DNA of 64,000 bases. It comes from Candidatus Fermentibacterota bacterium (GTDB lineage: Bacteria > JAFGKV01). Position 1 is the stretch's first letter. Each line of letters opens with the position of its first letter. Positions 33,050 through 53,125 of the stretch are shown here, piece by piece. The notes under the pieces were generated by a model. That model worked only from the letters and a program-made list of their open reading frames with translations, did no database searches and was not told the origin of the DNA. The position numbers were made by a program, and so were the translations under genes. Where the stretch lies: the NCBI GenBank assembly GCA_016928395.1, contig JAFGKV010000134.1, positions 2,631-66,630 of the forward strand, given 5' to 3'.

Positions 33050-33727
33050 ATGGCCCTTCAAACCGTAACACAGGAAGGGCGGATTCACGCGCGGACACTC
33101 AACTGCGCCTTTGAGGGCACAGTAGTGATGCCCGGAGCCACGCGTCTCAGGGAATTTCTAAACCGCCCGAACCCAACCATAAGCTTGACCGACGTCACGG
33201 TCACCACGGCCCCCCCGGGCGTATCGCGCTCCCCCGAGGAGGTCGCGGCTCTGACGGTCTACAAGAGCCAGATTCTCTATGCCACACTTGTTGAAGAGAT
33301 CCGCCGGGCCCGGGCCAATGTATATGAACGTGACGTGCTGGCTGCCCACCTGAAGAAGGCGCTCTTCACGTTTCAACTGGATGGGGGCATCATTGTGACC
33401 GGCGAAGTGGTGGGCGGCGAGCACGCGGTGGCCTTTCCCAAGGGTGCATTCCTGGCCATTGCCAATCCGACCCTCACCAACCTCCGGGGGATCGATCTGC
33501 TGGGCGCATTGACCTTCGTGCTGATCAATATGAACCGGATGGAGTACTACAAGTCTGTAGGCGCCGAGCCAGGCCCTCCTGTCGAACGAGCAGAGGCTGA
33601 AGAGCCAGTGCAGGAAGTGCAGGCGGAAGCGCCGGTGAAGAGTCCTCCTGACCCTGAGATGGATTTCTCTGATTTCGAAGCGCAATTCGTCCGTATCGGC
33701 CCGACTGACATCAAGACTCCTTCCTGA
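33050..33727 (+). CDS. Hypothetical protein translationally coupled to lexA
   Basis: GGAGG RBS. Its TGA stop overlaps the lexA ATG (TGATG). It may be an internal two-domain duplication with an acidic C-terminal tail. No family recognised. Confidence 0.6.
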   Translation: MALQTVTQEGRIHARTLNCAFEGTVVMPGATRLREFLNRPNPTISLTDVTVTTAPPGVSRSPEEVAALTVYKSQILYATLVEEIRRARANVYERDVLAAHLKKALFTFQLDGGIIVTGEVVGGEHAVAFPKGAFLAIANPTLTNLRGIDLLGALTFVLINMNRMEYYKSVGAEPGPPVERAEAEEPVQEVQAEAPVKSPPDPEMDFSDFEAQFVRIGPTDIKTPS

Positions 33728-34344
33728 TGCGTGAGCCCGGCCTGTTTCCCCGTCAGAGAGCCCTACTCCGGGAAGTACGGCGTCTCACGAAGGAGCAAGG
33801 CTATCCTCCCACGATCCGTGAGCTGGCCCAGGCCCTCGGTGTTCGCTCGCCCAACGGCGTCCGACAACAGCTCCTCTCCCTGGAACGAAAGGGGTGCCTC
33901 AGACGCGAGCCGGGTAAGCCCCGGGGAATCGTCTTGGCAGACTCCGCGGAGGAGGAATCCATTCCCATCCTTGGGCTCGTCGCCGCCGGATCTCCAATCG
34001 ATGCGGCCGAGATGCACCGCGGACGACTGGCGCTTGGCCCTTCACTGGGCGTGGCGACCGACAGATGCTTTGCGGTGGAGGTCGAAGGCGAGAGCATGAT
34101 TGGAGAGCACATCGTGCAAGGTGATTTCGTCGTGCTCGATCCGGGAGTGGAACCGCGCAATGGCCATATCGTAGGAGTCACGGTCGACGGGGCCGTGACC
34201 CTGAAGACGTATCATTCCGACTACGACGGCGTGGAACTCCGCCCCGCCAACCCCCGCATGCGTGCCATTCAGATCCGCTCGGGAACGGTGCATGACGCCC
34301 GGGTCATGGGAGTGGCCGTGGCCGTGGTCCGTCGCTTGGGATGA
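33727..34344 (+). CDS. lexA: LexA repressor (S24 peptidase)
   Basis: wHTH region TIRELAQALGVRSPNGVRQQLLSLERKG, cleavage site VAAG, catalytic Ser in VEGESM and Lys in VTLKTY, then C-terminal MGVAVAVVRRL. Confidence 0.9.
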   Translation: MREPGLFPRQRALLREVRRLTKEQGYPPTIRELAQALGVRSPNGVRQQLLSLERKGCLRREPGKPRGIVLADSAEEESIPILGLVAAGSPIDAAEMHRGRLALGPSLGVATDRCFAVEVEGESMIGEHIVQGDFVVLDPGVEPRNGHIVGVTVDGAVTLKTYHSDYDGVELRPANPRMRAIQIRSGTVHDARVMGVAVAVVRRLG

Positions 34345-36260
34345 GCATAGTGCGCCGTCTCTGGCTGCTGCTTTTGCTGCCCTGCGCCGCAATGGCCGAC
34401 TGGGGCGGTGTGGCCGGTGCCTACCTTCGTTTCGGGGCCTCGGCCCGCACCCTGGGTATGGGAGGATTGGATCTAGTGCTGGGACGCGGTGACGCCGCAG
34501 CCTACGGGAATCCAGCCCTGATCGGCCTGTTGGACGCCCGTGAGCTGTCATTCACCCATGTGGCCCTGTATGAGGGGTCATCCTATTCCGTAGCCACGGC
34601 GGCCCTTCCCGGCCAACGATGGGGCGGCCTGGGCCTGGCGGTGGTCAGTCTGCGATGCGACGGCTTCGAGAAACGAGGCGAATTCGACAATCGATACTCT
34701 ATCAAAGGGGAGGAGTTCGGCAGCGCCCAGACCGCACTCCTTGCCGGAGGGGGCAGGGATCTCAGTTCGTGGGCCACGGGAACCTCCCTGGGTGGTCGGA
34801 TCATCATTGCCGGGCACTCGATGCTGGATCAGCGGGCATTCGGCTTCGGCGCGGATTTCGGCATCGAACACCGGATGGTACTCCCCTATGTCCATCGACG
34901 TCTCGCTCCTCTGACCGTGGCCGTGACGGTTTCGAACGTACTCCAGCCTCGCGTTCGAATGGAGAGAGATGTGGAGCGTTTTGCCCGCCGCGTCGACGTG
35001 GCAGCAAGCTATGCCGTGCATCCTTGGGGCGCACTGGGATTGCAGGCCTGCGTGGCCGGCGATGCGAGCCGGCGGTTCATAGCCGGCATCGAGGCTATGC
35101 CGCGTTCCGACCTGGCGCTTCGGCTTGGTGGCAATGCCTCCGAGCTGACTGCAGGAGTGGGCCTTGCCTGGAAGGGGCTTGGCATAGACTACGGCGTGGC
35201 CTGGCATGACGAGTTCTCGCTCAGCCACAGGCTGAGCCTCGTCGTGGCCCGTCCTCGGCGGCCCGCGACGGAACCCTCCTCCCTGCCGCTCTGGGATGCC
35301 TCCCGGTGGGTGGTGCAACATTACCGTGACCCGAAGGCAGCGGATGCGGCCCATCGGCTGGCACAGGCGTTCGGCGGGAGAAGGGCGTCCCGACTCTACC
35401 GGTACGTTGTCGGTCAGCACCCCGCCACGATCTGGGCCGCCCATGGATGGCGATGGTTCGGCGATCGGTCCTACGAGGACCGCAACTGGAAGAAAGCCGA
35501 AACCAACTTGGTGCGGCTTCTGGGCCATCCCCACAGGGATGATGTGGCGGTGCCCGCCACCTGGTTCAGGCTTGGGGATGCGTCCGAGCATCTGGGTCAT
35601 TGGCGGACGGCGGTGGAGGGCTACGAGCTGGTGATGCGAGCATCGGGCGAGCCCGAAGACAAGGCGGAATCGTTCTTCCGAGCGGGGGCGATCCATTTCC
35701 TGCATTTGACCGACTATGCGGCGACCGTCCGCGTGTATGAAGAGGCCGTTACCCGGTATCCGACCCGTGATCTGTCTGATGCCTTCTTCCGGCTCGGCAG
35801 GTCGTATGCGGAGCTTGCACGGTGGCAAAGCTGCATCGACAGGATGGATGTGTTCCTGGCCAGGTATCAGACCGATTCCAGGGTTCCGGCCGCCCTCTTT
35901 TGGAGCGGGCGTGCCTACTACGAGCTCGGGTTGCCTGAGGAGGCGCTGCTCCGGCTGGAACGAGTGGTCGAGGGCTATCCTCAGGATGAGATAGCAGACG
36001 ACGCAGTCTTGTACAAGGGGCACTGCCGTCGGCTCACTGGAGAACTGGCGCTGGCCCGGATCGAGTATGCGCGGGTGGTGAAGGATTTCCCGATGGGAGA
36101 CACCGCGCCTCTGGCCCAGCTTTCCTTGGGCATTGTGCTGCAGGACGAGGGCTCGCATGACATGGCGATTCGCGAATTCCAGCGATTCATTGTGAACTAT
36201 CCCACTCATCCCGGCCGGAAAGAAGCAGAGGCTCGCCTCGGCACGTTGCGCCGTGAATGA
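34341..36260 (+). CDS. Fusion protein: N-terminal region with PorV/UPF0164-like motif (putative OM barrel) and C-terminal YbgF/BamD-like TPR repeats
   Basis: Signal MSIVRRLWLLLLLPCAAMA. The motif GAYLRFGASARTLGMGGLDLVLGRGDAAAYGNPALIG resembles the N-terminal signature of PorV/PorQ/UPF0164 barrels. The C-terminal half carries TPR-like helices (DAFFRLGRSYAELARWQSCI, ALFWSGRAYYELGLPEEAL). ATGA overlap with lexA. Confidence 0.65.
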   Translation: MSIVRRLWLLLLLPCAAMADWGGVAGAYLRFGASARTLGMGGLDLVLGRGDAAAYGNPALIGLLDARELSFTHVALYEGSSYSVATAALPGQRWGGLGLAVVSLRCDGFEKRGEFDNRYSIKGEEFGSAQTALLAGGGRDLSSWATGTSLGGRIIIAGHSMLDQRAFGFGADFGIEHRMVLPYVHRRLAPLTVAVTVSNVLQPRVRMERDVERFARRVDVAASYAVHPWGALGLQACVAGDASRRFIAGIEAMPRSDLALRLGGNASELTAGVGLAWKGLGIDYGVAWHDEFSLSHRLSLVVARPRRPATEPSSLPLWDASRWVVQHYRDPKAADAAHRLAQAFGGRRASRLYRYVVGQHPATIWAAHGWRWFGDRSYEDRNWKKAETNLVRLLGHPHRDDVAVPATWFRLGDASEHLGHWRTAVEGYELVMRASGEPEDKAESFFRAGAIHFLHLTDYAATVRVYEEAVTRYPTRDLSDAFFRLGRSYAELARWQSCIDRMDVFLARYQTDSRVPAALFWSGRAYYELGLPEEALLRLERVVEGYPQDEIADDAVLYKGHCRRLTGELALARIEYARVVKDFPMGDTAPLAQLSLGIVLQDEGSHDMAIREFQRFIVNYPTHPGRKEAEARLGTLRRE

Positions 36261-36309
36261 TGGTGGGTGGGCGTAGGGATTCTTCGTCTTCTGGGTGAAG
36301 GGAGATGGC

Positions 36310-37119
36310 ATGAGACTAGCCGTGGGAAGCGCGGTGTTCATCGTGGCGCTCGGCGCCATGACGATCGCCGGCGCGCAGCCCCCCCAAGATCCGGCGGGGC
36401 TGGAGGGTGAGAGCGAGGCACTGGGTCTGCCCGTGGTTGACACCGTGACGCTGGAGCCTGTCCGTGAAGAAGGCCACATCATGGTGAAGCGGGGCTTCAT
36501 TCAGGATTTGTGGCGCAAGGGCGGCCCGGTGATGTGGGTTCTACTGGCCAACTCGGTGTTCGGCATTTCCTTGGTTGTGGAGCGGCTGCTTGCCCTACGA
36601 CGATCCAAAGTGCTGCCGACATCGTTTCTCAGGAATGTCCGTACCCGATGGCTTTCCGGCGATGTGAAGGGTGCCTTTGACCTGTGCAGCGAGACCGACA
36701 TCCCCATCGCCCGGGTGCTCAAGGCGGGTCTCGCCAAGCACGGCAGGGGCGTGGCGGAGATCGAGCGCGCCATCGAGGCTTCGGGTGGCCATGAGATTCA
36801 ATCTCTGTCCAAACACCTGCGCACCTTGGGCGCTCTGGCGAGTATCGCTCCTCTCCTGGGCATTCTGGGTACCGTCACGGGAATGATCAAGGCGTTCAAC
36901 ACCATTGCCGTGAGCGGGTCGCGCCGGCCCGACCTCATCGCCTCGGGTATTTCGGAGGCTCTCATTACCACGGCCACCGGGCTCTCCATCGGCATTCCGC
37001 TGTTCGTGCTGTACCATTACCTCATGGGCAGGGCCGAGCTTCGTACCTGGGAGATGGAGGAGGTCGCCATCGACATCGTCGAGAATCTCTCACTCCGGAG
37101 CGAGGGCATTGAGGTTTAG
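36310..37119 (+). CDS. exbB: MotA/TolQ/ExbB-family proton channel
   Basis: LGALASIAPLLGILGTVTGMIKAF...ISEALITTATGLSIGIPLFVLYHYL. The ORF opens at GTG 36295. ATG 36310 has a GGGAG RBS. Confidence 0.9.
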   Translation: MRLAVGSAVFIVALGAMTIAGAQPPQDPAGLEGESEALGLPVVDTVTLEPVREEGHIMVKRGFIQDLWRKGGPVMWVLLANSVFGISLVVERLLALRRSKVLPTSFLRNVRTRWLSGDVKGAFDLCSETDIPIARVLKAGLAKHGRGVAEIERAIEASGGHEIQSLSKHLRTLGALASIAPLLGILGTVTGMIKAFNTIAVSGSRRPDLIASGISEALITTATGLSIGIPLFVLYHYLMGRAELRTWEMEEVAIDIVENLSLRSEGIEV

Positions 37120-37531
37120 AAAGCGCACCCCGGAGGGGATCGAACTGCAAATCGTGTCGCTTATCGACGTGGTCTTCCTCCTGTTGATCTTCTTCCTCAT
37201 GGGTACGACCTTCGTCGACCTCCTGGACAAGCTGGACATCCGCCTGCCGGAAAGCACGGCGACCACCCGGCAGCAACGCCGCAACCACCTCATCGAGCTG
37301 AGCGTAGACGGCCGGATGTTCCTGGACGGGGTCACGGTCACCATGGAGGATCTGCCTCTCCGGCTGGAACAGGTCTCTTGGGACCCGGGTATGGGAGGAA
37401 GAGTCGCTATCATCAAGGCGGACAAGCGAGTCACCCACGGCGACGTCGTCAGGGTGATGGGCATCTGCAAGAAGGCGGGAGTGCTCCAGGTCGGTATTGC
37501 AGCACTGCTGGAAATAGAAGAGGAAGTCTGA
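37109..37531 (+). CDS. exbD: ExbD/TolR-family biopolymer transport protein
   Basis: IVSLIDVVFLLLIFFLMGTTF followed by a periplasmic domain ending KADKRVTHGDVVRVMGICKKAG. It overlaps the exbB end. Confidence 0.9.
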   Translation: MRFRKRTPEGIELQIVSLIDVVFLLLIFFLMGTTFVDLLDKLDIRLPESTATTRQQRRNHLIELSVDGRMFLDGVTVTMEDLPLRLEQVSWDPGMGGRVAIIKADKRVTHGDVVRVMGICKKAGVLQVGIAALLEIEEEV

Positions 37532-37564
37532 GGCGCGGCCGAACGCCGGGCGTGGAGAGATAGG

Positions 37565-38509
37565 ATGCCAGCAGAAGCCATGGTGTTCCGGAAAGATTCC
37601 TTCTGGTCTTCAGGAGTGATAGTATCCCTCCTGGCCCATGTCGTCGTGCTGGTAAGCCTGAACCAGCTTCCCACGGCCCGGGTCCGCCTTCAGCCCCGGG
37701 AACTGATAATGGAGGTTGACCTCATGGAGCCTCCGCCCACGCCCGAACCTCCGCCTGAATCACCGCCTCAGGAGCGGGGCGAACTTGCCCAGCCTCCCCA
37801 GCCAAACCTGCTGGACATGAGCGCCGCGGCGCTGCCCGAGCCAGGGCAGGACCTGTTCCGGGATTTGCCTGTGCCCGACCTCGATTTGAGTTACGAATCG
37901 CCCCTTGATCTGCAGCAGCCGACCCTCGATCTGACTGAGAGGGATGTACTGCGATCAGATGCCAAGCAATCGGCCCTTTCGCTGGATGGGGAGTTCCTAC
38001 CGACTCTGCCGGGCGACAGGCTGGATGTGGGAGGCCGTAGAGACGCCATGGTGGTTGGGGAAGCCAGCCGCGACGGCCTGGCGCCGGCACCGGTAGGCCC
38101 CGGCCATACGCCGCGAACCGTGGGCTATCCCACCGCCAGGCCCACGGAGCGCACCAGCGGCCTGGAGAGCTCTCCAGTTCGACCCGCTGGAGCCTCTCGG
38201 TCCTTGGGCGTACCCGATAAGCCAACCGTGGGCGCTCCCGGCGAGGTGATGCCTGGTTCACGGACTCGGAAACGTCTTCGCCTTGTGGAGCCTACCGTGC
38301 CCGCGTGGGTCGAGGACCAGGGCATCGAAGCCTATGCGAAAGTACGTTTTCAGATTCTGGAAGACGGGAGGATCGGCACCATCGAGCTGACCATGTCCTC
38401 AGGCTATCGTGAGCTGGACAATCTCGCCATCGGCGCGGTGAAACAGTGGCTGTATGAACCGGGGCTGGTTGAGTACCGGTCCGTCAGGGTGAACTTCAAG
38501 CTACGGTAG
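37565..38509 (+). CDS. TonB/TolA-like energy transducer
   Basis: N-terminal TM (SSGVIVSLLAHVVVLVSL), Pro-rich spacer PPPTPEPPPESPP, and a TonB-C-like end: PAWVEDQGIEAYAKVRFQILEDGRIGTIELTMSSGYRELDNLAIGAVKQWLYEP. Confidence 0.8.
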   Translation: MPAEAMVFRKDSFWSSGVIVSLLAHVVVLVSLNQLPTARVRLQPRELIMEVDLMEPPPTPEPPPESPPQERGELAQPPQPNLLDMSAAALPEPGQDLFRDLPVPDLDLSYESPLDLQQPTLDLTERDVLRSDAKQSALSLDGEFLPTLPGDRLDVGGRRDAMVVGEASRDGLAPAPVGPGHTPRTVGYPTARPTERTSGLESSPVRPAGASRSLGVPDKPTVGAPGEVMPGSRTRKRLRLVEPTVPAWVEDQGIEAYAKVRFQILEDGRIGTIELTMSSGYRELDNLAIGAVKQWLYEPGLVEYRSVRVNFKLR

Positions 38510-38548
38510 TGGGCAGTTCGACAACCACAGCACGAGTGACTGACTGAC

Positions 38549-41500
38549 ATGCGTCCCCTTGCCCCCAGACAACCGGTCTGGGGTGGCGGCTGTGCCCACC
38601 CTCCTGCCGTGAGTCTTGAGGCGTCCATGTATCTCCAAGTGCTCACCCTCAACGCCCTGTGGATTCGCTGGCGGAAGACCTTCCTGGTCTGGCTCGCTGT
38701 CCTCGGCATTGTCGTACCTGCCGTGCCGGCACAGAATGCCGATGCCATTGGGGCATTCCGGTATGCGGCAGGTCTCTTCGATATGGGCGAGTATGAGCTG
38801 GCTGCCGCGGAATTCGACCATGTTCTCTCGTCATTCCCCGGCGACTCCCTGGCGCCCTCAGCGGCCTACTGGCTGGGAGAGAGCCTCTTCCAGCTGGAGC
38901 GATTTGGCGACGCGGCCAACGCGTTCTCCAGGGCGGTACGGCCGAGCGCCGACCTGGGATTGCAGGAGGATGCCCGTATGCGCAGGGCCGAGGCATTGTG
39001 GGCTGCGGGCGATACGCCGGGAGCGATCCTGGCCTACGAAGCCGTGCTGTCGGCCCACCCTGTAGGGAAGTATCGGGGCAAGGCGAGCTATTGGCTCGGC
39101 AGAGCCTATGTCTCCGCTGGACGAAAAGTGGATGCCGCACGGGTTCTGAGAAACGCTGCGGCGTGGGGGGAGGACGCTCTGCAGCGGGCGGAAGCCGCCT
39201 ACCTCGCAGGTGACATCCTTCGGGAGCTGTCGCGATGCGATGAAGCCGGGGAGCACTACCGGGATGTGCTGCGGCTTACTCCCCACGGCGCGCACGCTCC
39301 CGCGGCCTTGGAGGGTCTGGCCCGATGCGCCATAGACGCTGGAGCATGGGAGTCGGCGGCCGAGGCGCTCCGCACGCTTACGGAGACATTCCCCACGTCA
39401 CCGCAGGCCAGCGACGGCAGGTTTCATCTCGCAGAATGCCTCTCAACACTGCACCGGCCCACCGAGGCGCTGGCTGCCTACAAGGCCGTCTTGAGAGACG
39501 GGGCAGCTCATGCGCTCTGGGACAAGGCCCTGTACGGGGAGGCATGGGCCTATGCCGCCGCTGGTGACACAGTGGCCGCATTGGCCTCCTTTGCCCAGTT
39601 GGCGACCGATTTCCCCACCAGTGCCCTGGCATCGGAAGCAGCGTTCCGGGAGGCGCAACTGGCGTACGCCGCCGGTGAACACGCCCGCGCCATCCGGTCC
39701 TTCGGTCGCATCATGGCCGACTGGCCAACGTCGGCGTTCGTCTCCTCGGCGCTGTACTGGAGGGGATGGGCACATCAGAAGCTGGGCGGCCTGCCCCAGG
39801 CCGAGCGTGATTTCCTGAACTACGCGGCTTCCTATCCCGATTCACAGTATGCAGCCAATGCCTTGCTGCTCGCCGGCCTGGCTGCAGTGGACCAGGGCTC
39901 ATTGTCCAGAGGCGCCGAGGCATTGGAGCGGGCGCGAAAGCAGTACCCGGGTTCCTCGGTCATGCCCCAGGTGCTGACGGCACTGGCCTCCGCCTATTCA
40001 AAGCTGGGTGAGCCCGCCCGAGCCGATGGTGCGCGTTCCCAGCTGGCCGTGAACCACCCCGAAACTGAAGAGGGGAGGGCCGCGCTCCTGCAGAAGGGAT
40101 TCTCTGATCTCGAAGAGGGGCGGGAGTCCGCAGCCTTGGCGAGTCTCTCCACTCTCCTCTCGCGCCCCGATATCGGTGAAGATCAGAAGGCCAAGGCGGT
40201 CTACTACCTGGCCGAAGCCCACTACCGGCTACACGACTGGGCAGAAGCTGAATCGCTGTACGCACGGTCCGAGCTGATGAATGCCGAGGGCGACTTGGAG
40301 GATGACAGCGTCTATGGGCGGGCCTGGTCGGCCCTGAAGGCAGGGAAGACCGAGGAGGCCGGCAGGGTGTTCCAGCGTCTTGCCGTGATGCATCCAGACA
40401 GTCCCTTCGCGGCTGAAGCAGCCTTCAGGTACGCCCAGACACTCTATGATCGAGGGGCATACGAGGATGCGGCTGCAGCCTATGGCGGTCTGGTGAATCG
40501 ACACGGGGGTAGCGAGTACGCCGACGATGCGGTCTATGCAGGCGCCTGGTCTTTGGTGAAGAACGGCGCCATAGCCGAGGCGGCGGCCCAGTTTTTGCGG
40601 CTGGTGGAGATCTACCCCGCCAGTCCGCTGATTCCCGATGCCTTGTATGATCTGGGATCCTGCTATAGCCAACTCGATCGCCCCGCAGCCACCGCACGCA
40701 CTCTGCAACAACTGCTGGAGCAGTATCCACACCACGTCAAGGCTCCAGAAGCCGCCACCGCTTTGGCCTATGCCTACGACGCGTTGGGACAGCCCGCCCG
40801 ACGAGACAGCGTCCTATCACAGATGGAGTCTCAGGGCAGCAGCGCCTCGGCTGCCGCCGCGATGTTGGCATTTGCGGGCGGGAAGATGGAAGGCGATCCC
40901 GACGAAGCCCGCGCACTGCTATCCCGCATTATTGCCCGCCACCCGGATTCTCCCGAGGCAAAGGAGGCCAGGTTGCGGCTCGCGAACTTTCTCACCCAGG
41001 AGGGACGCTTCGCCGAGGCCTATGACATGGTTGCGGCCCTGTGTAGTGATGACGACGCCCAAATTCTGGGGCGCGCATGTGTGCGTGCGGGTGAGACCCA
41101 GTTCGAGATGGCCGAGTACGAAGAGGCCGCCCGTTTCTACCGGATGGCGCTGGATGAGGGCACCGGGATTGACCGGGGCATTGCATGGTACGGCATCGCG
41201 TGGTCGAACCTGGAGTTGGGCCGGCGCGATGCAGCCATCGAAGCCCTGCTGAGGCTCTTCCGGGAACATCGGCAGAGCCCGGTGTGGACGGATGGCTCCT
41301 ATCGGCTAGGACAGCTCCTTGCCGATGCCGACCGCAAGAAGGAAGCCGCCGATGTGTATGCGGCGTTGGGTGACGATGTGGAGTTAGGCTCCCTGGCCCT
41401 GGATGCGACGTATCGCCGTGCCATTCTCCTTCGCGAGCGCAAGGCATATACCCAGGCAGCAACCCTGCTGCGAAAGGTTGCTGCAGGCAGCGACAGCACT

Positions 41501-42100
41501 CTCGCGCTGCAGGCCATGCTGGAATTGGGGCGAACCCTCCACGAACAGGGCCGCCTGACAGAAGCAACGGACGTATTCATCCAGCTGGCCGGCAGAACCC
41601 CTGATGAACGTGCCGCACAACAGGCCATGTACTCCGCCGGCGTGTGTCAAACTTCGATGAAGCGGTGGAAGAAGGCCGCCGAATACTTCGGCAAGGCATC
41701 TGCCATGCCCGGTCCGAACCGCTCGGACGCACTTCTGGGCGAAGGCTGGGCCAGAGCCGCGGCGGGAGAGCACCAGAAGGCGTCCCAGCTCTTCGTCACA
41801 ATCCTGCAGGAAACACCCGACTATGCCAAAGGCGCCGAGGTGGCCTTCAGGCTTGCCCAGAGCTTGCAGGAATTGGGGCACTATACCCAGGTCGACAGCA
41901 TTTGCACCGAGCTGGTTGGCCGCCAAGACTGGCCATATCCCGACCGTGCGCTGTACCTTGGCGCCACCGCCAAGGAGAAGCTGGGAGACACCGAGGGGGC
42001 GATTGCCGCCTATCGGGGCTTGATCGAGGAGTATCCTTCCAGCAGTCTTGTGCCCTATGCAAAGGCGCATGCCGATGCGCTGGCAGGAGAAAAAGGTTGA
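38549..42100 (+). CDS. Giant TPR-repeat protein (YbgF/BamD-like repeats, 1183 aa)
   Basis: Dozens of 34-40-aa helical repeats of the form A.Y..G.......Y..A...F..........P.S..A..A.Y. N-terminal hydrophobic segment FLVWLAVLGIVVPAVPAQ. The start may be ATG 38627. Confidence 0.85.
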   Translation: MRPLAPRQPVWGGGCAHPPAVSLEASMYLQVLTLNALWIRWRKTFLVWLAVLGIVVPAVPAQNADAIGAFRYAAGLFDMGEYELAAAEFDHVLSSFPGDSLAPSAAYWLGESLFQLERFGDAANAFSRAVRPSADLGLQEDARMRRAEALWAAGDTPGAILAYEAVLSAHPVGKYRGKASYWLGRAYVSAGRKVDAARVLRNAAAWGEDALQRAEAAYLAGDILRELSRCDEAGEHYRDVLRLTPHGAHAPAALEGLARCAIDAGAWESAAEALRTLTETFPTSPQASDGRFHLAECLSTLHRPTEALAAYKAVLRDGAAHALWDKALYGEAWAYAAAGDTVAALASFAQLATDFPTSALASEAAFREAQLAYAAGEHARAIRSFGRIMADWPTSAFVSSALYWRGWAHQKLGGLPQAERDFLNYAASYPDSQYAANALLLAGLAAVDQGSLSRGAEALERARKQYPGSSVMPQVLTALASAYSKLGEPARADGARSQLAVNHPETEEGRAALLQKGFSDLEEGRESAALASLSTLLSRPDIGEDQKAKAVYYLAEAHYRLHDWAEAESLYARSELMNAEGDLEDDSVYGRAWSALKAGKTEEAGRVFQRLAVMHPDSPFAAEAAFRYAQTLYDRGAYEDAAAAYGGLVNRHGGSEYADDAVYAGAWSLVKNGAIAEAAAQFLRLVEIYPASPLIPDALYDLGSCYSQLDRPAATARTLQQLLEQYPHHVKAPEAATALAYAYDALGQPARRDSVLSQMESQGSSASAAAAMLAFAGGKMEGDPDEARALLSRIIARHPDSPEAKEARLRLANFLTQEGRFAEAYDMVAALCSDDDAQILGRACVRAGETQFEMAEYEEAARFYRMALDEGTGIDRGIAWYGIAWSNLELGRRDAAIEALLRLFREHRQSPVWTDGSYRLGQLLADADRKKEAADVYAALGDDVELGSLALDATYRRAILLRERKAYTQAATLLRKVAAGSDSTLALQAMLELGRTLHEQGRLTEATDVFIQLAGRTPDERAAQQAMYSAGVCQTSMKRWKKAAEYFGKASAMPGPNRSDALLGEGWARAAAGEHQKASQLFVTILQETPDYAKGAEVAFRLAQSLQELGHYTQVDSICTELVGRQDWPYPDRALYLGATAKEKLGDTEGAIAAYRGLIEEYPSSSLVPYAKAHADALAGEKG

Positions 42101-42102
42101 CC

Positions 42103-44625
42103 ATGCTTCATTTACTCGCGCTGTGCCTACTATTGATCGGCGGCGGAGAGACCCTCGCACCCGACCAGGAACTCTATCTTCAGGGGGCCCAAGCGTTTGA
42201 CCGTGACGACTTCGGCGTTGCCATGACCAGCTTTGAAGCTCTCCTTCACCGGCACTCCTCTAGCTCGCTGGCCTGTCCGGCGCACTATGCGCTGGCTGAG
42301 ACCTACTACAGCCTTCAGCAGTATCAGAAGGCCCTGGCTGAGCTTGATGCGGTAGACTCTCCGTGTGAGACCCGGGTAGGTCGCGGCCGGGTTCAATGGC
42401 GGAGAGCCTGGGTACTGTACCATCTCGGGCGGCTTCCGGCCGCGGGAGAAGCCTTTCAGCAGGCAAGCACGAGCCCCGACCTCTCCGCCAATGATCAAAC
42501 CGCAGCCATGGTAATGGTCGGTGACGTCGCGATGGAACAGGGCAGGGCTGCCGATGCGCTGTCCGCCTACCGGCGCGTCGTCCAGCGCAACATGCCGTCG
42601 CCGCTTCTGTGCCAGATTCACTACAAGATCGGGCGAGCAGCACTGACGGAAGGGGCCTTTACCGAGGCCCAGACTGCGTTCGCCACCGTGGTGCAACTTG
42701 ACTCCCGTTCCGAATTCGCCGACGATGCCGTCTATGGCCGCGCGTGGGCACTGCGGAAGCAGAAGAAGCATGAAGGCGCTCGCGCCGCATGGCATCAGCT
42801 CATCGTGACCTATGCGCAATCGCCGCTGGCTCTGGAAGCACGATTCCGGATGGGCGAGGAGTACTATAGCTTAGGGAAGTATCAGGAAGCCATCATGGCG
42901 TTCGATACAGTACCCGCCGCCAGCGATTTTGCCGACCATGCCATGTACTGGAAGGCGTGGGCCGAATACCGGCTGGACCAGTTCTCGAAGGCCGCATACA
43001 CGTTCAGCCTCATCCGGACCAGTTTTCCCAGATCCCGGCTGGCCACCGATTCCCAGTTCCGCGCGGCGGATGCCCATCGGGAGGCTGGCCAGTATGAACT
43101 GGCCTTGCGAGGGTATCGCGTACTGGTGGAAATGAAACCCAGCGAAGAGTATCTCGTCGAGTCGCTCTATGGCATGGCGCAATCCGCGGCCTTCAGCGGC
43201 GACCTTTCCGCGGCCGAGAACTATCGCACGCAGCTCTTGTCCACGGGAAAGGCCGGCGACTTCGCCCCGCGGGCATTCTTCGACCTGGGCGTCGCCGCCT
43301 ACAACCGCAAGCAGTACGGGCGTGCCATCCGGGAGTTCTCCACGCTCCTCTCCCAGTACCCCGCCCACAGCCTGGCGAACGAAACCTGGTACCACTTGGG
43401 GTTGAGCCACTTGCGCGATGAGCGTTATGGCGAGGCCAGAAACGCGTTCCAGCGCACCATCAAGGCTGCGCCCAACAGCGAGACCGCCTCTCTGGCGGCC
43501 TATCAGTTGGGCTGGGCGTACTTCCGTGATGGCGAGTTTGACCGCGCCGCCGAGCAGTTCAATGAGGTGAGCAGACGGGGCGGCCCCCGGGCCACAGACG
43601 CCCTGTATCGCTCTGGCGACGCTCTGTACAACGCCGGCCGATACACAGACGCCATCGCAGTGTATCAACAAGTCATCGACATGGCCCCGGGCTCTGAGCT
43701 GGCTGCCACGGCCCAGAACTCCATCGGGTGGTGTTATGAACGGCTGAGCCGGCCGGCCGAGGCCATTGGCGCCTTCCATGTGGTCGTCGATCGCTACCCC
43801 CAGAGCCTTGTGTGGGACGACTCTGCCTACAAGATTGCCGAATACTACCACGGTGCCGGAGACTACACGCTGTCGATTCCTATCCTCGAGGCGTTGCGCA
43901 GCGCCCCGGGTTCGCCTTTCTGGGAGAGCAGCCTGCTGATGCTGGGCAGCGATCTCTGGAAGACTGGCCGTAAGCGTGAGGCTCGAAGCGTGATCGAGTC
44001 TCTCCTGTCCAGGAGAGACTCGCCTCTCAGGCCCGACGGTCTGCTACTGCTCGCCGACGCCAGTTGGGATGATCGTGACTGGGACCAGGCTCAGGCCCGC
44101 TATGCGCAATTCGCCGAGGAGTACCCTTCCAGTGAATCAGCCGCCCTGGCGTTCCTGCGTGTGGCGGAATCCTATGCTGCACAAGAACTCTGGGACAAGG
44201 CAGCCGAGGCGTTCACCCGCGCTTCCGTGGCCGGAGCGCCTCGCGCCTCCTGCCTCGCGGGCACCTGCAAGGCAGCGGCCAACGTAGGCCGATGCGCCGA
44301 GGCCGAGAACGCCGCGCGAACAATGGAGACAGACTTCCCCACCGACGCCCGAACCGCCGACGCCCAGTTCTGGGCCGGGAACTGCTATGTAGGCACGGGA
44401 GACGATGAAACGGCCGCGCGCCTCCTACTTAAGGTGCCCATCTTGTATCCTGACAGTGACCAGGCTGACGACGCCCTGCTGCTGGCAGCCCGTGCACGGT
44501 TGAGGCAGGGCCGCGGCGACCAGGCAGAGCGGCATCTTCGGCTCCTTCTCGAGAAGTACCCTGCCTCGGAGCTGCGAGGACAGGCTGAAAGGCTCCTGGC
44601 ATCCATGGAAGGGGGGACACGATGA
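42103..44625 (+). CDS. Giant TPR-repeat protein (840 aa)
   Basis: ATG 42103 lies directly after the upstream stop, with signal-like MLHLLALCLLLIGGGE. It has the same repeat type. The ORF-track extension to 41644 overlaps the previous gene and translates as Arg/Gly-rich nonsense. Confidence 0.85.
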   Translation: MLHLLALCLLLIGGGETLAPDQELYLQGAQAFDRDDFGVAMTSFEALLHRHSSSSLACPAHYALAETYYSLQQYQKALAELDAVDSPCETRVGRGRVQWRRAWVLYHLGRLPAAGEAFQQASTSPDLSANDQTAAMVMVGDVAMEQGRAADALSAYRRVVQRNMPSPLLCQIHYKIGRAALTEGAFTEAQTAFATVVQLDSRSEFADDAVYGRAWALRKQKKHEGARAAWHQLIVTYAQSPLALEARFRMGEEYYSLGKYQEAIMAFDTVPAASDFADHAMYWKAWAEYRLDQFSKAAYTFSLIRTSFPRSRLATDSQFRAADAHREAGQYELALRGYRVLVEMKPSEEYLVESLYGMAQSAAFSGDLSAAENYRTQLLSTGKAGDFAPRAFFDLGVAAYNRKQYGRAIREFSTLLSQYPAHSLANETWYHLGLSHLRDERYGEARNAFQRTIKAAPNSETASLAAYQLGWAYFRDGEFDRAAEQFNEVSRRGGPRATDALYRSGDALYNAGRYTDAIAVYQQVIDMAPGSELAATAQNSIGWCYERLSRPAEAIGAFHVVVDRYPQSLVWDDSAYKIAEYYHGAGDYTLSIPILEALRSAPGSPFWESSLLMLGSDLWKTGRKREARSVIESLLSRRDSPLRPDGLLLLADASWDDRDWDQAQARYAQFAEEYPSSESAALAFLRVAESYAAQELWDKAAEAFTRASVAGAPRASCLAGTCKAAANVGRCAEAENAARTMETDFPTDARTADAQFWAGNCYVGTGDDETAARLLLKVPILYPDSDQADDALLLAARARLRQGRGDQAERHLRLLLEKYPASELRGQAERLLASMEGGTR

Positions 44626-45938
44626 GACGGTGGCTGATCCCCCTTGTCTTCGCGGGGGCGCTCCACGCACAGACACCGTCGGTGGCGCAACCGGGAAAGA
44701 TCGAGCCGCCTGAGGAAGAGATAACGGTCTTCGGCGAGCAGAAGCAACGCCTCCAGATGCGTCGCGATGCCCGCGAACTGGCCCTTCTTGAGGAGTCTCT
44801 GCGAACTCGATTCGGGCTCAATCGTCCAAGTGCGTCTCCCGATCGACTTCTCGACCGTGGGGTCGTTCTCCTGAATTGCGCGGGACTGGAAGCCCAGTCA
44901 CGGCCCGGAGGAGCGGAGGTCTTCATTGACGGCAGCATAGCCGGCGAGACTCCAGTGTCAGCGAGCGGTCTTCCCAGCGGCCGTCATATCGTGGCCATGC
45001 GGCACCGCGGGTACGAACTGTGGACCGCCCCGGTGCTTTTCCCGCCTTGGGGTACCGCACGAGTCACCGCCAGCTTGGACCGGAGAATCTCCTACGAACT
45101 CAGCGCCGTGTGGCGAACCGAAGACGCCCAGGATCGGCCCAGTGGTCTGGCTGTGCTTCGACCGGGAGAGGTGTTTGTATCGGGTGGCGGCACGGTGAAG
45201 CTGTGGGCGCGAGGCAAACCTCAACGAGATCTTCGCGCCGACGGGATGGTTGAGCCAAGGGGTATGGCCCTCTCACCCTCGAAACAGCATTTGTACGTAG
45301 CGGATCCTGGATGCCATACCGTCTGGTGTATCGATGCCGCGACCGGCCGCCTCATACGGCGCCTTACCGAAGGAAGCGGTCAACCCCTCCATCAGCCCAC
45401 CGATGTTGCCGTGGCGGAAGACGGACGTGTCCTGGTGTGCGATTCGGGCAATCACCGATTGGTCTGGTTCAACGCCGACGGCCAATGGGTGGAGACGTGG
45501 GGAAAACGGGGGGATGACCAGGGGATGTTTCGGCATCCCGAGGGCGCCGCCATCGATGAGAACGGCGCGGTGTACGTTGCCGACTGGGGAAACAACCGTA
45601 TTCAAGTACTGGCACCCAAGGGGGCAGTGCTGCGTGTGTTTGGCCAGCAGGGCATGGCACCGGGGCAACTCCAGGGACCGACAGAAGTATGCCTTGAGGA
45701 AGGGGGCTACCTGCTGGTCGTAGATTCGTTCAACGATCGGGTGCAGCGGTTCAGGCGTGACGGCACTATTGTCAGCGTGCTTCCGGAGGCTCGCGGCCTC
45801 GGCACCTTCACCAAACCATTCAGCGCCGCATTGGATCCCTCGGGGCTCGTCTATGTCACCCAACGCGACCGTCACGGCATTTTGGTGCTGCGACAAGTGT
45901 GGGAGCAGGGGTACATGAGCGCCGTGCTCAGGCCCTGA
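44622..45938 (+). CDS. Periplasmic PEGA-domain + NHL-repeat beta-propeller protein
   Basis: Signal MRRWLIPLVFAGALHAQ. PEGA-like region: GAEVFIDGSIAGETPVSASGLPSGRHIVAMRHRGY. NHL blades: LYVADPGCHTVWCID, VLVCDSGNHRLVWFNADG, VYVADWGNNRIQVL, LLVVDSFNDRVQRFRRDG. ATGA overlap with the upstream gene. Confidence 0.8.
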   Translation: MRRWLIPLVFAGALHAQTPSVAQPGKIEPPEEEITVFGEQKQRLQMRRDARELALLEESLRTRFGLNRPSASPDRLLDRGVVLLNCAGLEAQSRPGGAEVFIDGSIAGETPVSASGLPSGRHIVAMRHRGYELWTAPVLFPPWGTARVTASLDRRISYELSAVWRTEDAQDRPSGLAVLRPGEVFVSGGGTVKLWARGKPQRDLRADGMVEPRGMALSPSKQHLYVADPGCHTVWCIDAATGRLIRRLTEGSGQPLHQPTDVAVAEDGRVLVCDSGNHRLVWFNADGQWVETWGKRGDDQGMFRHPEGAAIDENGAVYVADWGNNRIQVLAPKGAVLRVFGQQGMAPGQLQGPTEVCLEEGGYLLVVDSFNDRVQRFRRDGTIVSVLPEARGLGTFTKPFSAALDPSGLVYVTQRDRHGILVLRQVWEQGYMSAVLRP

Positions 45939-45948
45939 AGCATCTCGA

Positions 45949-46443
45949 ATGCGGATCGCGGCGTGTGTTCTCCTGCTTGCTGCCTGTGGGGGCTGTTATT
46001 CCTTTTCTGCCCGAACCTCGACCCGCATACGCTCCGTGGCCGTTCCCTTTTTCGAGAACCACAGCGGGCGCTTTGGGCTGGAGGGATTAGTCACCGAAGC
46101 GGTTGCCAAGGGGTTCCTTGATGATGGTGATCTTCGAGTCGTGGATGAGCGGTCCGCTGACTCAGTGCTACGGGGTATCATCACGGGGTACGACCACAAG
46201 GCTGCCGTGTATGACCAGAGTGAGCAGGTCAGCACCATGCGCGTCACCATCACGGTCGACGTCATCTACCGTGATCTCACCAAAGGCACCGTGGTCTGGG
46301 AGCAGAAGGGGCTGTCCGCATGGGGGCAGTACCGTCTTGTGACGTCGGCGGAAGGACCGGCGCAGACCGAGGAGGACGGCCAGGTTGAGGCGATACGCCG
46401 CCTGGTTCAGGAGATCTTGGCTCGCTCCATCGAGACATGGTGA
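45949..46443 (+). CDS. lptE: LptE-like LPS-assembly lipoprotein
   Basis: Lipobox LLLAACGGC, then SVAVPFFENHSGRFGLEGLVTEAVAKGFLDDGDLRVV...VLRGIITGY. 164 aa. Confidence 0.7.
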   Translation: MRIAACVLLLAACGGCYSFSARTSTRIRSVAVPFFENHSGRFGLEGLVTEAVAKGFLDDGDLRVVDERSADSVLRGIITGYDHKAAVYDQSEQVSTMRVTITVDVIYRDLTKGTVVWEQKGLSAWGQYRLVTSAEGPAQTEEDGQVEAIRRLVQEILARSIETW

Positions 46444-47408
46444 AGCCAAAACGGTGGCGCCATCGGGGAGAATGGTGGTTGCTTCGGGGAACCCTTGCCG
46501 CCACGAGGCATCTCCCTCGGCGCGTGTATCCCACCGTGGCAAGATGCCTGGGGGCAGCGGCCTTCGACGTGTTTCGCCTCAGACGCCGCGTGGTGGAGCA
46601 CAACCTGACACGGGCATTCGGCGGTGAAATGCAGTCGCCTCAGCGCCGACGCGTCGGCAGGAAATGCTACCAGGAATTGGCTCTGGGAGCGCTGGAGATG
46701 GCGGCACTGCACCACAAGGGAGCCGCTCATGTGCTAGAGACCTGTCGGATCCGGGGGGGGCGCGAGCATCTGGATCAGGTGCGCTCCGGCAAATCGGGGT
46801 GCATCCTCGTGACAGGCCACTTCGGCAACTGGGAGTACCTCGCAGGAGCCCTGGCCGTATGGGGCGTGCCGGTCAGCGCGGTGGGCGCACCGATGAGGAA
46901 CCCACTGGTAGACCGCTGGCTCACGTCGCTGCGCACCGGGCTAGGAATCGAGATACTGCGTACGGGCCGCGGGTCGGGCCGGGCCGCGCTTCGTGCTCTG
47001 CGGGCCGGCCGAGCCGTGCTCCTGCTGATAGATCAAGACGCCCGCAACCACGGCATGTTTGTGGATTTCTTCGGCATCCCCGCCAGCACCCACGTTGGGG
47101 CTGCCGTTTTGGCTCACCACACCGGTGCCCCAGTATTTCCTTGCAGGATAGACCGCGATGGCCTGCGTCACGTTGTGTCCGTCTATCCCCCCTTGACGCT
47201 TTCCCATGCGGGCGGCAAGTCCGCCATTCTCGACACCACACAGGCAATCACGACCATGCTGGAATCGTGGATACGAGAGCGCCCCGCATCGTGGTTTTGG
47301 CCCCACCGGAGGTTCAAGACCCAACCGCCCTCTCCGTGCACTCCCCTGCCCTTCACCGCTGGAAAAGGAGCCCAATGTGGAGCGAACCTTGCTCATCATC
47401 AAACCTGA
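46437..47408 (+). CDS. Lipid A biosynthesis (LpxL/HtrB-family) lysophospholipid acyltransferase
   Basis: HX4(D/E) motif GHFGNWEY, plus VLLLIDQDARNHGMFVDFFGIPASTHVGAAVLA and WFWPHRRFK. Confidence 0.8.
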   Translation: MVKPKRWRHRGEWWLLRGTLAATRHLPRRVYPTVARCLGAAAFDVFRLRRRVVEHNLTRAFGGEMQSPQRRRVGRKCYQELALGALEMAALHHKGAAHVLETCRIRGGREHLDQVRSGKSGCILVTGHFGNWEYLAGALAVWGVPVSAVGAPMRNPLVDRWLTSLRTGLGIEILRTGRGSGRAALRALRAGRAVLLLIDQDARNHGMFVDFFGIPASTHVGAAVLAHHTGAPVFPCRIDRDGLRHVVSVYPPLTLSHAGGKSAILDTTQAITTMLESWIRERPASWFWPHRRFKTQPPSPCTPLPFTAGKGAQCGANLAHHQT

Positions 47409-47832: not shown

Positions 47833-48414
47833 ATGAGCCCTCTCGAGTTGGATATACCGGGTGCGACCACGGTTGCCTTCACGACGGTGCTGCCCGTCGA
47901 CGGCGCGCTGCTTGAGCTGGAGGGGGCGGGCGTTTCGTTCTCAGCTGCCGGTCGTGTCACCGTTGAGGTCGCGCCTGTCAATGAAGGATTCCTGGTGACG
48001 GGGATACTGGAAATTCCCGTGGAACTGGCGTGCAGCAGATGCCTTGCCCCCGCTGAACATCGTATCCTTGAGCACTTTCGGATCGTCTTGAGTAGAGACT
48101 CGTCCGCTGGCGATGCCGATGATGAATGGGTGTTCTTCGCCCACGATGAGCGCACATTCGACTTGGCGCCATTGGTTCGTGACCTCATCATCGTCGCATT
48201 GCCGGCCAAACCACTGTGTGACGATCGCTGTCTTGGCCTGTGCCCCGTCTGCGGGAGCGACCGGAACCAGACGCGTTGCCACTGCATCAACTCTACCATT
48301 GACCCTCGTTGGGCGGGACTCCTGCCGCTGGCGGTCAATGGGGACGTATCGCCCGATAAGGAGGAGGCCAGTCATGGCACTACCGAAGAGGAAGATATCC
48401 AAGACCAGGCGTGA
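47833..48414 (+). CDS. yceD: YceD/DUF177 family protein
   Basis: CSRCLAP...DLAPLVRDLIIVALPAKPLCDDRCLGLCPVCGSDRNQTRCHC, in the canonical position upstream of rpmF. Confidence 0.85.
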   Translation: MSPLELDIPGATTVAFTTVLPVDGALLELEGAGVSFSAAGRVTVEVAPVNEGFLVTGILEIPVELACSRCLAPAEHRILEHFRIVLSRDSSAGDADDEWVFFAHDERTFDLAPLVRDLIIVALPAKPLCDDRCLGLCPVCGSDRNQTRCHCINSTIDPRWAGLLPLAVNGDVSPDKEEASHGTTEEEDIQDQA

Positions 48415-48556
48415 CAAGCGCCGAACTCATTGGGTGCTCGATGCCCCGACGACGAACGCATGTCCCAAGTGCCACCAGCCACGGCATCCCCACCGGGTAT
48501 GCCCTCATTGTGGTTACTATAAGGGAAGCCAGATCCTGGAGATCAAGGAGACCTGA
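48374..48556 (+). CDS. rpmF: 50S ribosomal protein L32
   Basis: MALPKRKISKTRRDKRRTHW....CPKCHQPRHPHRVCPHCGYYKG; 60 aa; GAGGAGG RBS. Confidence 0.95.
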   Translation: MALPKRKISKTRRDKRRTHWVLDAPTTNACPKCHQPRHPHRVCPHCGYYKGSQILEIKET

Positions 48557-48561
48557 CCCGG

Positions 48562-49632: not shown

Positions 49633-50618
49633 TCGATGGGTTCCTGTTCCCCGGCCAGGGGTCGCAGCATGTCGGCATGGGCCGGGAACTGGCGTCGCGG
49701 TGCGCCTCGGCCAAGGCGGTCTTCGAGATGGCCGACGACATCATGGCGACCCCCCTTACGCGCATCATGTGGGAGGGTCCCGAGGCTGCCTTGAGGGAGA
49801 CGGTCTTCACCCAACCGGCCATTCTCGCCCATAGCCTGGCGTTGCTCGCGACAATCCACGAGATCTACGGCGAAGTGATTCCCGCTGTGGTCGCAGGTCA
49901 TAGCCTTGGCGAATACTCCGCTCTAGTGGCGGCAGGAGTACTGACGCCCTGTGCCGCGCTTCGCATTGTGAAGCGGCGCGGGGAACTCATGCATCGGGCC
50001 GGCGAGACCCGGCAAGGGGCCATGGCCGCGGTGCTGGGGTTGGACACGCCAGGAGTCCTCCATGTTCTCGAGGCGGCCCAAGGAGCAGGAATCGTAGTGG
50101 CCGCCAATCTGAACGCGCCCGATCAAACCGTGATATCGGGCGTTCCAGTCGCCGTCGACGAGGCCATGAAGTTGGCCTTCGAGGCCGGCGCTGCCCGGGT
50201 CGTGCCCCTGGCGGTCAGCGGGGCGTTTCATTCGCCGTTGATGGCGGGAGTGGCCAGCGAGCTGGCTTCCGTGGTACATTCGGTCGAGTTCGCTGAGCCC
50301 GCGTGCCCGGTCGTGCCCAATGTCACTGGCGCATTGACCACCAGCCCAGCGGAGCTCCGACGATGCCTGCTCCTGCAAATCGAGAGCCCGGTACGATGGT
50401 GCGACTCCATGAGGGCCATGGCGGGCAGTGGTACGCGGACATTCCTGGAGTTGGGCCCCGGCCGGGTACTGGCCGGACTCGCAAAGCGGATCGACCGAAG
50501 CGTGTCGGTGCGATCAGTCTCCGATCTAGACGCCCTGACCACATGGGACGGATTCAGGGAATCTCCTCGACAAGAAGGCTTGACCATAGAAGGAAAGGAA
50601 AAGCGCAGAGATGCTTGA
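49623..50618 (+). CDS. fabD: Malonyl-CoA:ACP transacylase
   Basis: FLFPGQGSQHVGMG...VAGHSLGEYSALVAAG...ISG...GAFHSPLM. Confidence 0.92.
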   Translation: MQLIDGFLFPGQGSQHVGMGRELASRCASAKAVFEMADDIMATPLTRIMWEGPEAALRETVFTQPAILAHSLALLATIHEIYGEVIPAVVAGHSLGEYSALVAAGVLTPCAALRIVKRRGELMHRAGETRQGAMAAVLGLDTPGVLHVLEAAQGAGIVVAANLNAPDQTVISGVPVAVDEAMKLAFEAGAARVVPLAVSGAFHSPLMAGVASELASVVHSVEFAEPACPVVPNVTGALTTSPAELRRCLLLQIESPVRWCDSMRAMAGSGTRTFLELGPGRVLAGLAKRIDRSVSVRSVSDLDALTTWDGFRESPRQEGLTIEGKEKRRDA

Positions 50619-53119: not shown

Positions 53120-53125
53120 GCGCAC

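Follow-up and report, generated by a model that had tools for sequence, protein, structure and literature searches.

A TonB/Tol-type motor gene cluster with a predicted PorV-like barrel fused to tetratricopeptide repeats in a Candidatus Fermentibacterota contig

We analysed a window of 64,000 nucleotides (nt) from the Candidatus Fermentibacterota bacterium assembly GCA_016928395.1 (contig JAFGKV010000134.1, positions 2,631 to 66,630 of the forward strand), and in it a run of nine genes, p1 to p9, at 34341-47408. A preliminary description of this DNA, made from the sequence alone, had read the nine as a non-canonical Tol-Pal/TonB-like envelope system that starts with a barrel fused to tetratricopeptide repeats (TPRs) and ends with two lipopolysaccharide (LPS) assembly genes. 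When the products were scanned against Pfam and NCBIfam, their domains matched that earlier list and every gene lay where it had been placed. The genes, together with a short motif within p7, are the following, with coordinates given as window positions and lengths in amino acids (aa).

34341..36260, + strand: p1, 639 aa, with a signal peptide, a predicted PorV/FadL-superfamily 14-strand barrel (approximately aa 20-305) and YbgF-type TPRs (aa 317-638)
36295..37119, + strand: p2, a stator subunit of the ExbB/TolQ type that has a signal-like segment at its N-terminus and an extension of some 70 aa in the periplasm
37109..37531, + strand: p3, an ExbD/TolR-type stator subunit
37565..38509, + strand: p4, a TonB/TolA-like force transducer with a transmembrane helix, a Pro-rich/disordered linker of about 200 aa and a TonB_C domain
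38549..42100, + strand: p5, an open reading frame (ORF) of 1183 aa for a giant periplasmic TPR scaffold
42103..44625, + strand: p6, 840 aa, a second periplasmic TPR scaffold with a signal peptide and no lipobox
44622..45938, + strand: p7, a periplasmic protein made up of a signal peptide, TonB-box-like motif, helical linker, PEGA immunoglobulin-like (Ig-like) domain and six-bladed NHL propeller
44709..44735, + strand: the TonB-box-like motif in p7, P-E-E-E-I-T-V-F-G (p7 aa 30-38)
45949..46443, + strand: p8, an LptE lipoprotein (Pfam LptE, 54.2 bits), outside the conserved module
46437..47408, + strand: p9, an LpxL-type lipid A acyltransferase (Pfam Lip_A_acyltrans, 167.7 bits), outside the conserved module

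These genes belong to a co-directional array on the + strand that runs from 30783 to about 53900. The tiny gaps and overlapping starts described before are present: intergenic gaps in the p1-p9 block measure at most 39 nt, p6 and p7 overlap in ATGA, and p2 overlaps p3 as p8 does p9. Upstream, lexA (33727-34344) and p1, which starts at 34341, likewise share an ATGA overlap, and because the tight packing extends through lexA and a DUF6812 gene, packing does not set the edges of the block. A scan for promoters and terminators returned no more sites than were found in shuffled sequence.

The extent of the unit becomes clear when other loci are compared. Three contigs (L001-L003) keep the seven-gene order p1-p7, with p1 identities of 50-72%, and retain the whole neighbourhood from ino1 to lptE, which on its own shows only that they are closely related. 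A further locus, L004, from a sister lineage, came to light among the more remote ExbB homologues that form the next tier; here p1-p7 are collinear and full-length at 27-59% identity, although the flanks are new, with a gene for a 1662-aa Ig-domain protein bearing a C-terminal sorting domain directly upstream, an N-glycanase gene downstream on the other strand, and no lexA, lptE or lpxL. We therefore define the conserved unit as p1-p7 (34341-45938), hereafter the module, since collinearity down to 27-59% identity between unrelated flanks is beyond chance. LptE follows the module in the close relatives L001, L003 and L010, and LpxL has the same distribution; both are absent after the module in L004 and in four more distant relatives introduced below (L073, L074, L076 and L077). 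We accordingly do not count LptE and LpxL among the components: of the nine genes, seven are conserved as a unit and the last two are not, and the suggested link to LPS assembly is local synteny only.

Several neighbouring genes were noted in passing. In L001-L003 the lexA gene lies directly 5' of p1, with an overlap or at most 2 nt between the two, and in L004 it is not so placed. Downstream of the block and after ndk, a standard lipid-synthesis array, yceD-rpmF-plsX-fabD-fabG-(acpP)-fabF-rnc, occupies 47833-53923 (+), so that in the lineage of the window the module is embedded in housekeeping genes.

The N-terminal 310 aa of p1 match the NCBIfam PorV/PorQ family at E 1.7e-10 and 41 bits, against a cut-off of 90, and the C-terminal half matches Pfam TPR_6 and NCBIfam tol_pal_ybgF (79.9 bits). 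An AlphaFold (AF2) model built on an 11-sequence alignment places 14 beta-strands at residues 68-303, with a model confidence score (pLDDT) of 55-70, followed by a confidently modelled TPR solenoid (pLDDT above 90). As TPR matches swamped the Foldseek search with the full-length model, a barrel-only model was made instead; its confidence is low (mean pLDDT 54.8), and its top match in the PDB is the PorV of the Flavobacterium johnsoniae type IX secretion system (T9SS) translocon (8gl6_F, E 1.5e-5, TM-score 0.58), followed by FadL. A profile of the barrel searched against PDB sequences also ranks PorV first (6h3i), at a marginal E of 0.028. The earlier proposal of a putative outer-membrane barrel fused to TPRs thus holds on modelling, with the N-terminal half of p1 best described as a predicted PorV/FadL-like barrel, and the even number of strands would put the C-terminal TPR domain in the periplasm.

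Orthologues of p1 fall into 11 clusters at 50% identity or more. The names on the closest relatives point to Candidatus Eisenbacteria, and one relative at 54% identity was deposited as Candidatus Fermentibacteria; a contig scan from the p1 alignment, for which two very specific peptide patterns were used, returned two loci, of which one had been identified before. The barrel family itself is far larger. Searching the barrel-domain profile against 1.84 billion representative proteins gave 7,675 matches at E <= 1e-3, 2,233 at E <= 1e-10 and 60 at E <= 1e-30, and more than half of the top 149 homologues measure either 520-730 aa or more than 1,250 aa. Among 72 sampled homologues, Pfam TPR_2 was found in 35, UPF0164 in 29, Toluene_X/FadL in 18, PorV in nine, PorP_SprF in eight and FlgD_ig in eight. 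Because about half of the sample carries TPRs, a lineage-specific fusion of barrel and TPRs was rejected. In public databases such homologues are labelled 'PorV/PorQ family protein' by NCBI and, in one case, 'TolA-binding protein' by JGI.

Five further genomic contexts of these homologues were fetched, and in all of them the barrel gene lies beside an ion-driven motor. Their gene orders are as follows.

L073: a 3116-aa protein upstream; a 1361-aa barrel and TPR fusion; then ExbB, ExbD, ExbD, TonB_C and a 305-aa protein
L074: 1447-aa and 974-aa proteins upstream; a 578-aa barrel-TPR protein; then ExbB, ExbD, ExbD, TonB_C, a 1079-aa TPR_6, PEGA and NHL fusion and a 950-aa TPR protein
L075 (Elusimicrobia, GCA_016212885.1; 1-18249): a 12,025-aa protein upstream; a 528-aa barrel-TPR protein; then a FliG_M/FliG_C and TPR protein with a signal peptide, a 594-aa coiled-coil-like protein, FlbD, MotA and MotB(OmpA)
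L076: two giant proteins upstream; a 600-aa barrel protein; then ExbB, a 145-aa protein, ExbD, a 182-aa protein and 1102-aa PEGA/NHL protein
L077 (Calditrichaeota): a 2132-aa Big_1 protein upstream; a 415-aa barrel; then a 1007-aa TPR protein, ExbB, ExbD, ExbD, TonB_C and a 285-aa protein

In L076 no TonB_C was detected and a single ExbD is present, the PEGA and NHL fusion is weaker than that of L074, and a TonB-dependent receptor lies three genes past the module. L075, where MotAB replaces ExbBD, looks like a flagellar-stator-type version of the cluster. The parts are also joined differently from one lineage to the next: barrel and TPRs are fused in p1 and L073 and separate in L077, while TPRs and PEGA-NHL form one protein in L074 and L076 and separate ones in the window. 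Such fusions indicate that the components are functionally tied. With related clusters in Calditrichaeota, Elusimicrobia and several unnamed metagenomic lineages, the system can no longer be called lineage-specific, as it had been.

The motor-and-transducer trio named in the preliminary description was recovered, with scores that favour TolQ/TolR over ExbB/ExbD. In p2, Pfam MotA_ExbB scores 104 bits, and NCBIfam tolQ reaches 84.7 bits against 50.6 for exbB, both below cut-off (221 for tolQ); its PDB matches are TolQ at 52 bits and ExbB at 38. For p3 the corresponding values are 89.7 bits for Pfam ExbD, and 52.6 bits for NCBIfam tolR against 44.6 for ExbD, far under the cut-offs (127 for tolR). 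An alignment of five orthologues shows no change at the transmembrane Asp of p3, which lies in 'LIDVVFLLLIFF'. In p4, TonB_C is matched by Pfam (44.7 bits, cut-off 24.6) and by TIGR01352 (40.5 bits, cut-off 27.1), the PDB matches are TonB C-terminal domains only, and both this domain and an S-x3-H motif in the N-terminal transmembrane helix are conserved in five orthologues. With its S-x3-H helix, Pro-rich spacer and TonB_C domain, p4 has the make-up of a TonB-type transducer. According to a recent survey, Pro-rich TolA outside Proteobacteria is structurally indistinguishable from TonB, and gene context alone defines Tol-Pal (PMC12204202).

Outside the module, ExbB has its nearest relatives in orphan ExbB-ExbD pairs of L005, L008 (Nitrospinae) and L009 (Entotheonellaceae). 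These lie beside BamD or DNA polymerase genes, and since none has TonB, TolB or Pal in its vicinity, they do not help to classify the motor. In Nitrospinae, bamD and the gene for an rpoD-like sigma factor are oriented divergently from the pair. The ExbB homologues of L074 (9504-10724) and L076 (11920-13257) are 406-445 aa long, with a large and probably periplasmic N-terminal extension that weakly matches the fibronectin-like Pur_ac_phosph_N family; the extension of p2 is shorter, at about 70 aa.

Next to this trio, p5 and p6 consist almost wholly of YbgF-type TPRs. NCBIfam tol_pal_ybgF scores 320 bits in 14 stretches of p5, which also matches Pfam TPR_6/TPR_16, and 271 bits in nine stretches of p6, which also matches Pfam TPR. 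The p6 orthologue in L004 is collinear at 32% identity over 857 columns. From where the orthologues begin, the start of p5 is probably the second Met, at nt 38627, which is followed by a signal peptide. Counting p1 (80 bits), these repeats come to approximately 2,300 aa, in line with the more than 2000 aa of the preliminary description.

A motor of this kind joined to a giant TPR protein recalls the gliding machinery of Myxococcus. In gamma-proteobacteria, Geobacter and Fibrobacter, Luciano et al. found the Agl-Glt 'core complex' as a single operon whose function is not known (PMC3169522), and the module might be a homologue of that complex (aglRQS with gltG and gltD/E/C), that is, an ancestral gliding-type force transducer. 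The composition runs strikingly parallel, with a TolQR-type motor, a Pro-rich TonB-CTD protein in p4 where Agl-Glt has its TonB-CTD transducers, and a periplasmic TPR protein of about 1200 aa (the GltD pillar in Agl-Glt) with further TPRs, and in Agl-Glt the outer-membrane barrels, which present the adhesin, are contacted through a TPR protein (PMC3169522, PMC11761067). Fibrobacter adds a case: in F. succinogenes an OmpA-TPR-TPR set (FSU_2396-2398) lies beside an ExbB-ExbD-ExbD-TonB operon (FSU_2400-2403), on cellulose the products of FSU_2396-2403 rise, and two of these turned up in surface complexes (PMC6851124). Compared by description, that set resembles the module in having TPR proteins beside ExbB-ExbD-TonB and in its tie to multiprotein complexes at the surface (PMC6851124); it differs in encoding an OmpA-family protein, with no PorV-like barrel reported. 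A specific relationship to Agl-Glt is nevertheless very improbable in our judgement. Of the Glt families, the family scans matched GltC alone, and its 18.6-31.8 bits (cut-off 450) amount to generic TPR similarity; the module has one TolR-type gene rather than two and no GltF-like gene; the barrel of p1 belongs to another, PorV/FadL-type family; and the p4 transducer is without cytoplasmic FHA or GYF domains.

The last gene of the module encodes a propeller of its own kind. Pfam PEGA and NHL match p7 at 39.5 and 99.7 bits, its PDB matches are all NHL propellers (up to 177 bits), and neither TolB_N nor PD40 was matched in Pfam or NCBIfam, nor was TolB among the PDB matches. The most conserved stretch of its N-terminal part is the motif P-x-E-x-I-T-V-x-G, in which P30, E32, I34, T35, V36 and G38 are invariant in four orthologues, L004 included, and which lies about 10 residues past the predicted signal-peptide cleavage site. 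An NHL propeller with an N-terminal TonB/TolA-box-like motif fits the earlier idea that a different propeller sits in the place of TolB. Judged from the motif, the TonB_C domain of p4 may grip the N-terminus of p7 as TolA grips TolB. When ORFs of at least 200 aa in the window were searched with a TonB-box regular expression, only p7, a TonB-dependent receptor and one antisense ORF matched. In L077 the 285-aa protein encoded after TonB begins with 'LDDVVVQA' and has an Ig-like domain. When metagenomes were scanned with the p7 alignment, 63 loci were retrieved; besides FWPV01 (L001), all hold generic NHL proteins without module genes nearby.

The receptor in question is SusC-like (60062-62491, -), with a CarboxypepD_reg N-terminal extension and a TonB box, 'GAVVVTG', between this carboxypeptidase-like domain and the plug. 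Its presence means that the organism needs a TonB system for uptake as well, and p1-p7 might then comprise an ordinary TonB-ExbBD system that energises TonB-dependent receptors, with the barrel-TPR, TPR and NHL genes as accessories or bystanders. This would fit the ExbB/ExbD-family motor, the TonB_C domain of p4 with TonB as its sole PDB matches, the receptor that follows the module in L076, and the window, in which a second TonB system was not seen. In SusC-like receptors, moreover, an Ig-like domain adjoins the TonB box, as PEGA does in p7. We nevertheless regard this explanation as improbable. The barrel and TPR genes stay by the motor across very deep divergence while the flanks change, the PEGA-NHL gene is beside the motor in four lineages, the fusions link the parts, and the motor scores lean to TolQ/TolR. 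The cluster also encodes its own candidate partner with a TonB-box-like motif, and this candidate is a soluble propeller in the periplasm rather than a plugged barrel of 22 strands; the barrel that the cluster does encode is of the 14-strand FadL/PorV type and is fused to TPRs. An uptake role and a force-transducing role are not mutually exclusive.

A second explanation takes the TolQ/TolR scores at face value and holds that the module replaces Tol-Pal in stabilising the outer membrane and in its invagination at division. In such a replacement p7 would be the TolB analogue, p5, p6 and the TPRs of p1 an expanded CpoB, and the p1 barrel an outer-membrane anchor in place of Pal. Much of the design would be shared: a TolQ/TolR-like stator of the 5:2 type, a Pro-rich transducer whose transmembrane helix bears S-x3-H, a periplasmic beta-propeller with an N-terminal TolA/TonB-box-like strand, as in TolB, abundant YbgF/CpoB-type TPRs and an operon-like layout. 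The housekeeping envelope genes around the module in the window lineage (lptE, lpxL, plsX and fab) would suit such a role, as would the lack of tolB and pal within 64 kb. Yet that lptE/lpxL neighbourhood is gone in L004 and the more distant relatives. No TolB, Pal or OmpA-like gene was seen among p1-p9 and the other large ORFs scanned in the 64-kb window, which agrees with the preliminary description on the missing OmpA-like Pal and on the non-canonical character of the set, and with neither TolB nor Pal the module does not qualify as a variant Tol-Pal system on sequence grounds. It is also without any peptidoglycan-binding domain, its outer-membrane partner being a barrel of predicted PorV/FadL type; its propeller is NHL and not PD40, with PEGA in place of the TolB N-terminal domain; and its TPRs, in proteins of 840-1183 aa and in a barrel fusion, reach some 2,300 aa against about 260 aa in CpoB. 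Replacement of Tol-Pal would furthermore leave unexplained the giant surface proteins encoded beside the relatives, described below. We consider it unlikely, and for p1-p7 a Tol-Pal-type tethering to the wall is less likely than handling of surface proteins.

Giant proteins with T9SS-type C-terminal domains (CTDs) are encoded directly 5' of the barrel gene in L004 and in four of the five other relatives (L073, L074, L076 and L077). The upstream giants of these five loci are alike only over their last approximately 100 residues. In a scan of five tails, from L004, L073, L074 and L076, three matched TIGR04183, which is the T9SS type A sorting domain, with 23.8-36.9 bits (cut-off 23) and all five matched PorU or PorZ C-terminal domains; the giant neighbour in L077 matches Pfam Por_Secre_tail. 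In the T9SS, PorV is the barrel that binds sorting domains, and PorP-like barrels are encoded beside their cognate giant cargo, as in sprB-sprF. Since in the relatives the barrel gene directly follows genes for giant CTD proteins, energy-dependent handling of surface proteins appears the likeliest job of the cluster, and the secretion-related motor that had been offered before as a weaker alternative gains support.

Likeness to the T9SS extends to a predicted PorV-like barrel, to TPR and propeller/Ig partners in the periplasm (the TPR lipoprotein PorW/SprE, and PorE), to an ion-driven 5:2-type motor and to the CTD proteins beside the relatives of the module. PorE, a TPR-propeller-Ig-OmpA protein, has itself been read as a CpoB-TolB-CP-Pal fusion (PMC12204202). 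The differences lie in the motor, which is ExbBD/TolQR with TonB rather than GldLM/PorLM, in the missing GldK/N, SprA and PorU, none of which was seen in the examined loci, and in p1, which scores under the PorV/PorQ cut-offs and has its barrel fused to TPRs.

The window holds CTD proteins of its own. Two ORFs, 12627-13553 (+) and 22376-24511 (-), end in FlgD_ig/T9SS-type domains that resemble the CTDs of the giants elsewhere; they lie 10-21 kb upstream of the module and match the CTD profile at E 8.7e-9 and 5.9e-4, respectively. They sit in a patch of secreted-protein genes that includes an S8 peptidase, VIT-VWA, VWA and BNR proteins. A 625-aa ORF at 13569-15446 (+) has no Pfam match, and its N-terminus weakly matches, in NCBIfam, the mosaic adhesive trimer fibre family of Bdellovibrio (24.3 bits against a cut-off of 60). 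The 289-aa protein encoded just 5' of the giant CTD protein in L004 (1589-2458) has two paralogues in the window, 716-2179 (-) and 19807-22233 (+), at 37-47% identity, with a weak BNR_4 match.

We suggest that p1-p7 encode a force-transducing machine of TonB/Tol type, as yet undescribed, which works on a PorV-like complex of the outer membrane and probably handles sorting-domain surface proteins, a reading whose chances of being right and wrong we judge to be about equal. Domains, the conservation of the module and its genomic associations are observed. The mechanism would run from the inner membrane outwards, and we infer each protein-protein contact in it, as well as the link to cargo. A proton-driven stator of the ExbB/TolQ-ExbD/TolR kind would be formed by p2 and p3 in the inner membrane, and p4 would dock on it through its S-x3-H transmembrane helix, with the Pro-rich linker spanning the periplasm to TonB_C. 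This domain would then grip the TonB-box-like N-terminus of p7 by strand addition, in parallel to the pairing of TolA with TolB and of TonB with its receptors, and p7, p5 and p6 would bridge to the periplasmic TPR domain of p1. In this way the force of the motor could act on a PorV-like outer-membrane complex that contains the 14-strand barrel of p1, for the energy-dependent release, anchoring or movement of giant surface proteins.

A number of observations weigh against this reading. In the lineage of the window no gene for a giant CTD protein adjoins the module, and lexA lies upstream instead; nor was any T9SS core gene (GldK/L/M/N, SprA/Sov, PorU) seen in the window or the fetched loci. The PorV assignment of p1 falls below the curated PorV/PorQ cut-offs, and confidence in the modelled barrel is low (pLDDT 55-70). 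Barrels of the UPF0164 type also occur in spirochaetes, which are not known to have a T9SS, so likeness to PorV is no proof of sorting-domain binding. In L074 and L076 the fused TPR-PEGA-NHL proteins lack the motif of p7. Finally, the ExbB of the window scores 194 bits against the Nitrospinae/Entotheonella orphans and 70-128 bits against L073, L074, L076 and L077, and among the three cluster subtypes the ExbB proteins do not have one another as nearest relatives, so that the clusters may have recruited their motors independently.

A broader proposal, which we put forward tentatively and think somewhat more likely to be wrong than right, is that the clusters represent a widespread and undescribed class of envelope machine, from candidate and little-studied phyla, in which a TonB/Tol motor (or MotAB) pulls a PorV-like barrel-TPR protein to export, sort or propel giant T9SS-type adhesins. 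Such a class would span Eisenbacteria, Fermentibacteria, Calditrichaeota, Elusimicrobia and unnamed lineages.

All parts of the cluster are of kinds known from motor-plus-transducer envelope systems; in the literature searched we found no description of a PorV-like/TPR cluster with ExbBD-TonB. Public annotation hides the unit behind names such as 'tetratricopeptide repeat protein', 'TolA-binding protein' and 'PorV/PorQ family protein'. To our knowledge, few envelope jobs of ExbBD/TolQR-type motors have been recognised, namely nutrient import (Ton), stabilisation of the outer membrane (Tol-Pal) and gliding in Myxococcus (Agl-Glt), and type IX secretion is powered by GldLM motors. A motor with a TonB-like arm that is coupled to a PorV-type barrel would add another, and the cluster would join TonB/Tol force transduction and type IX secretion, which until now have been linked by analogy only. 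It also offers concrete candidate partners, in the TonB-box-like strand on a soluble propeller and in the barrel-TPR and TPR-PEGA-NHL fusions. If the broader proposal is true, the cluster would be a new power source for type-IX-like handling of surface proteins, or a new gliding or adhesion motor.

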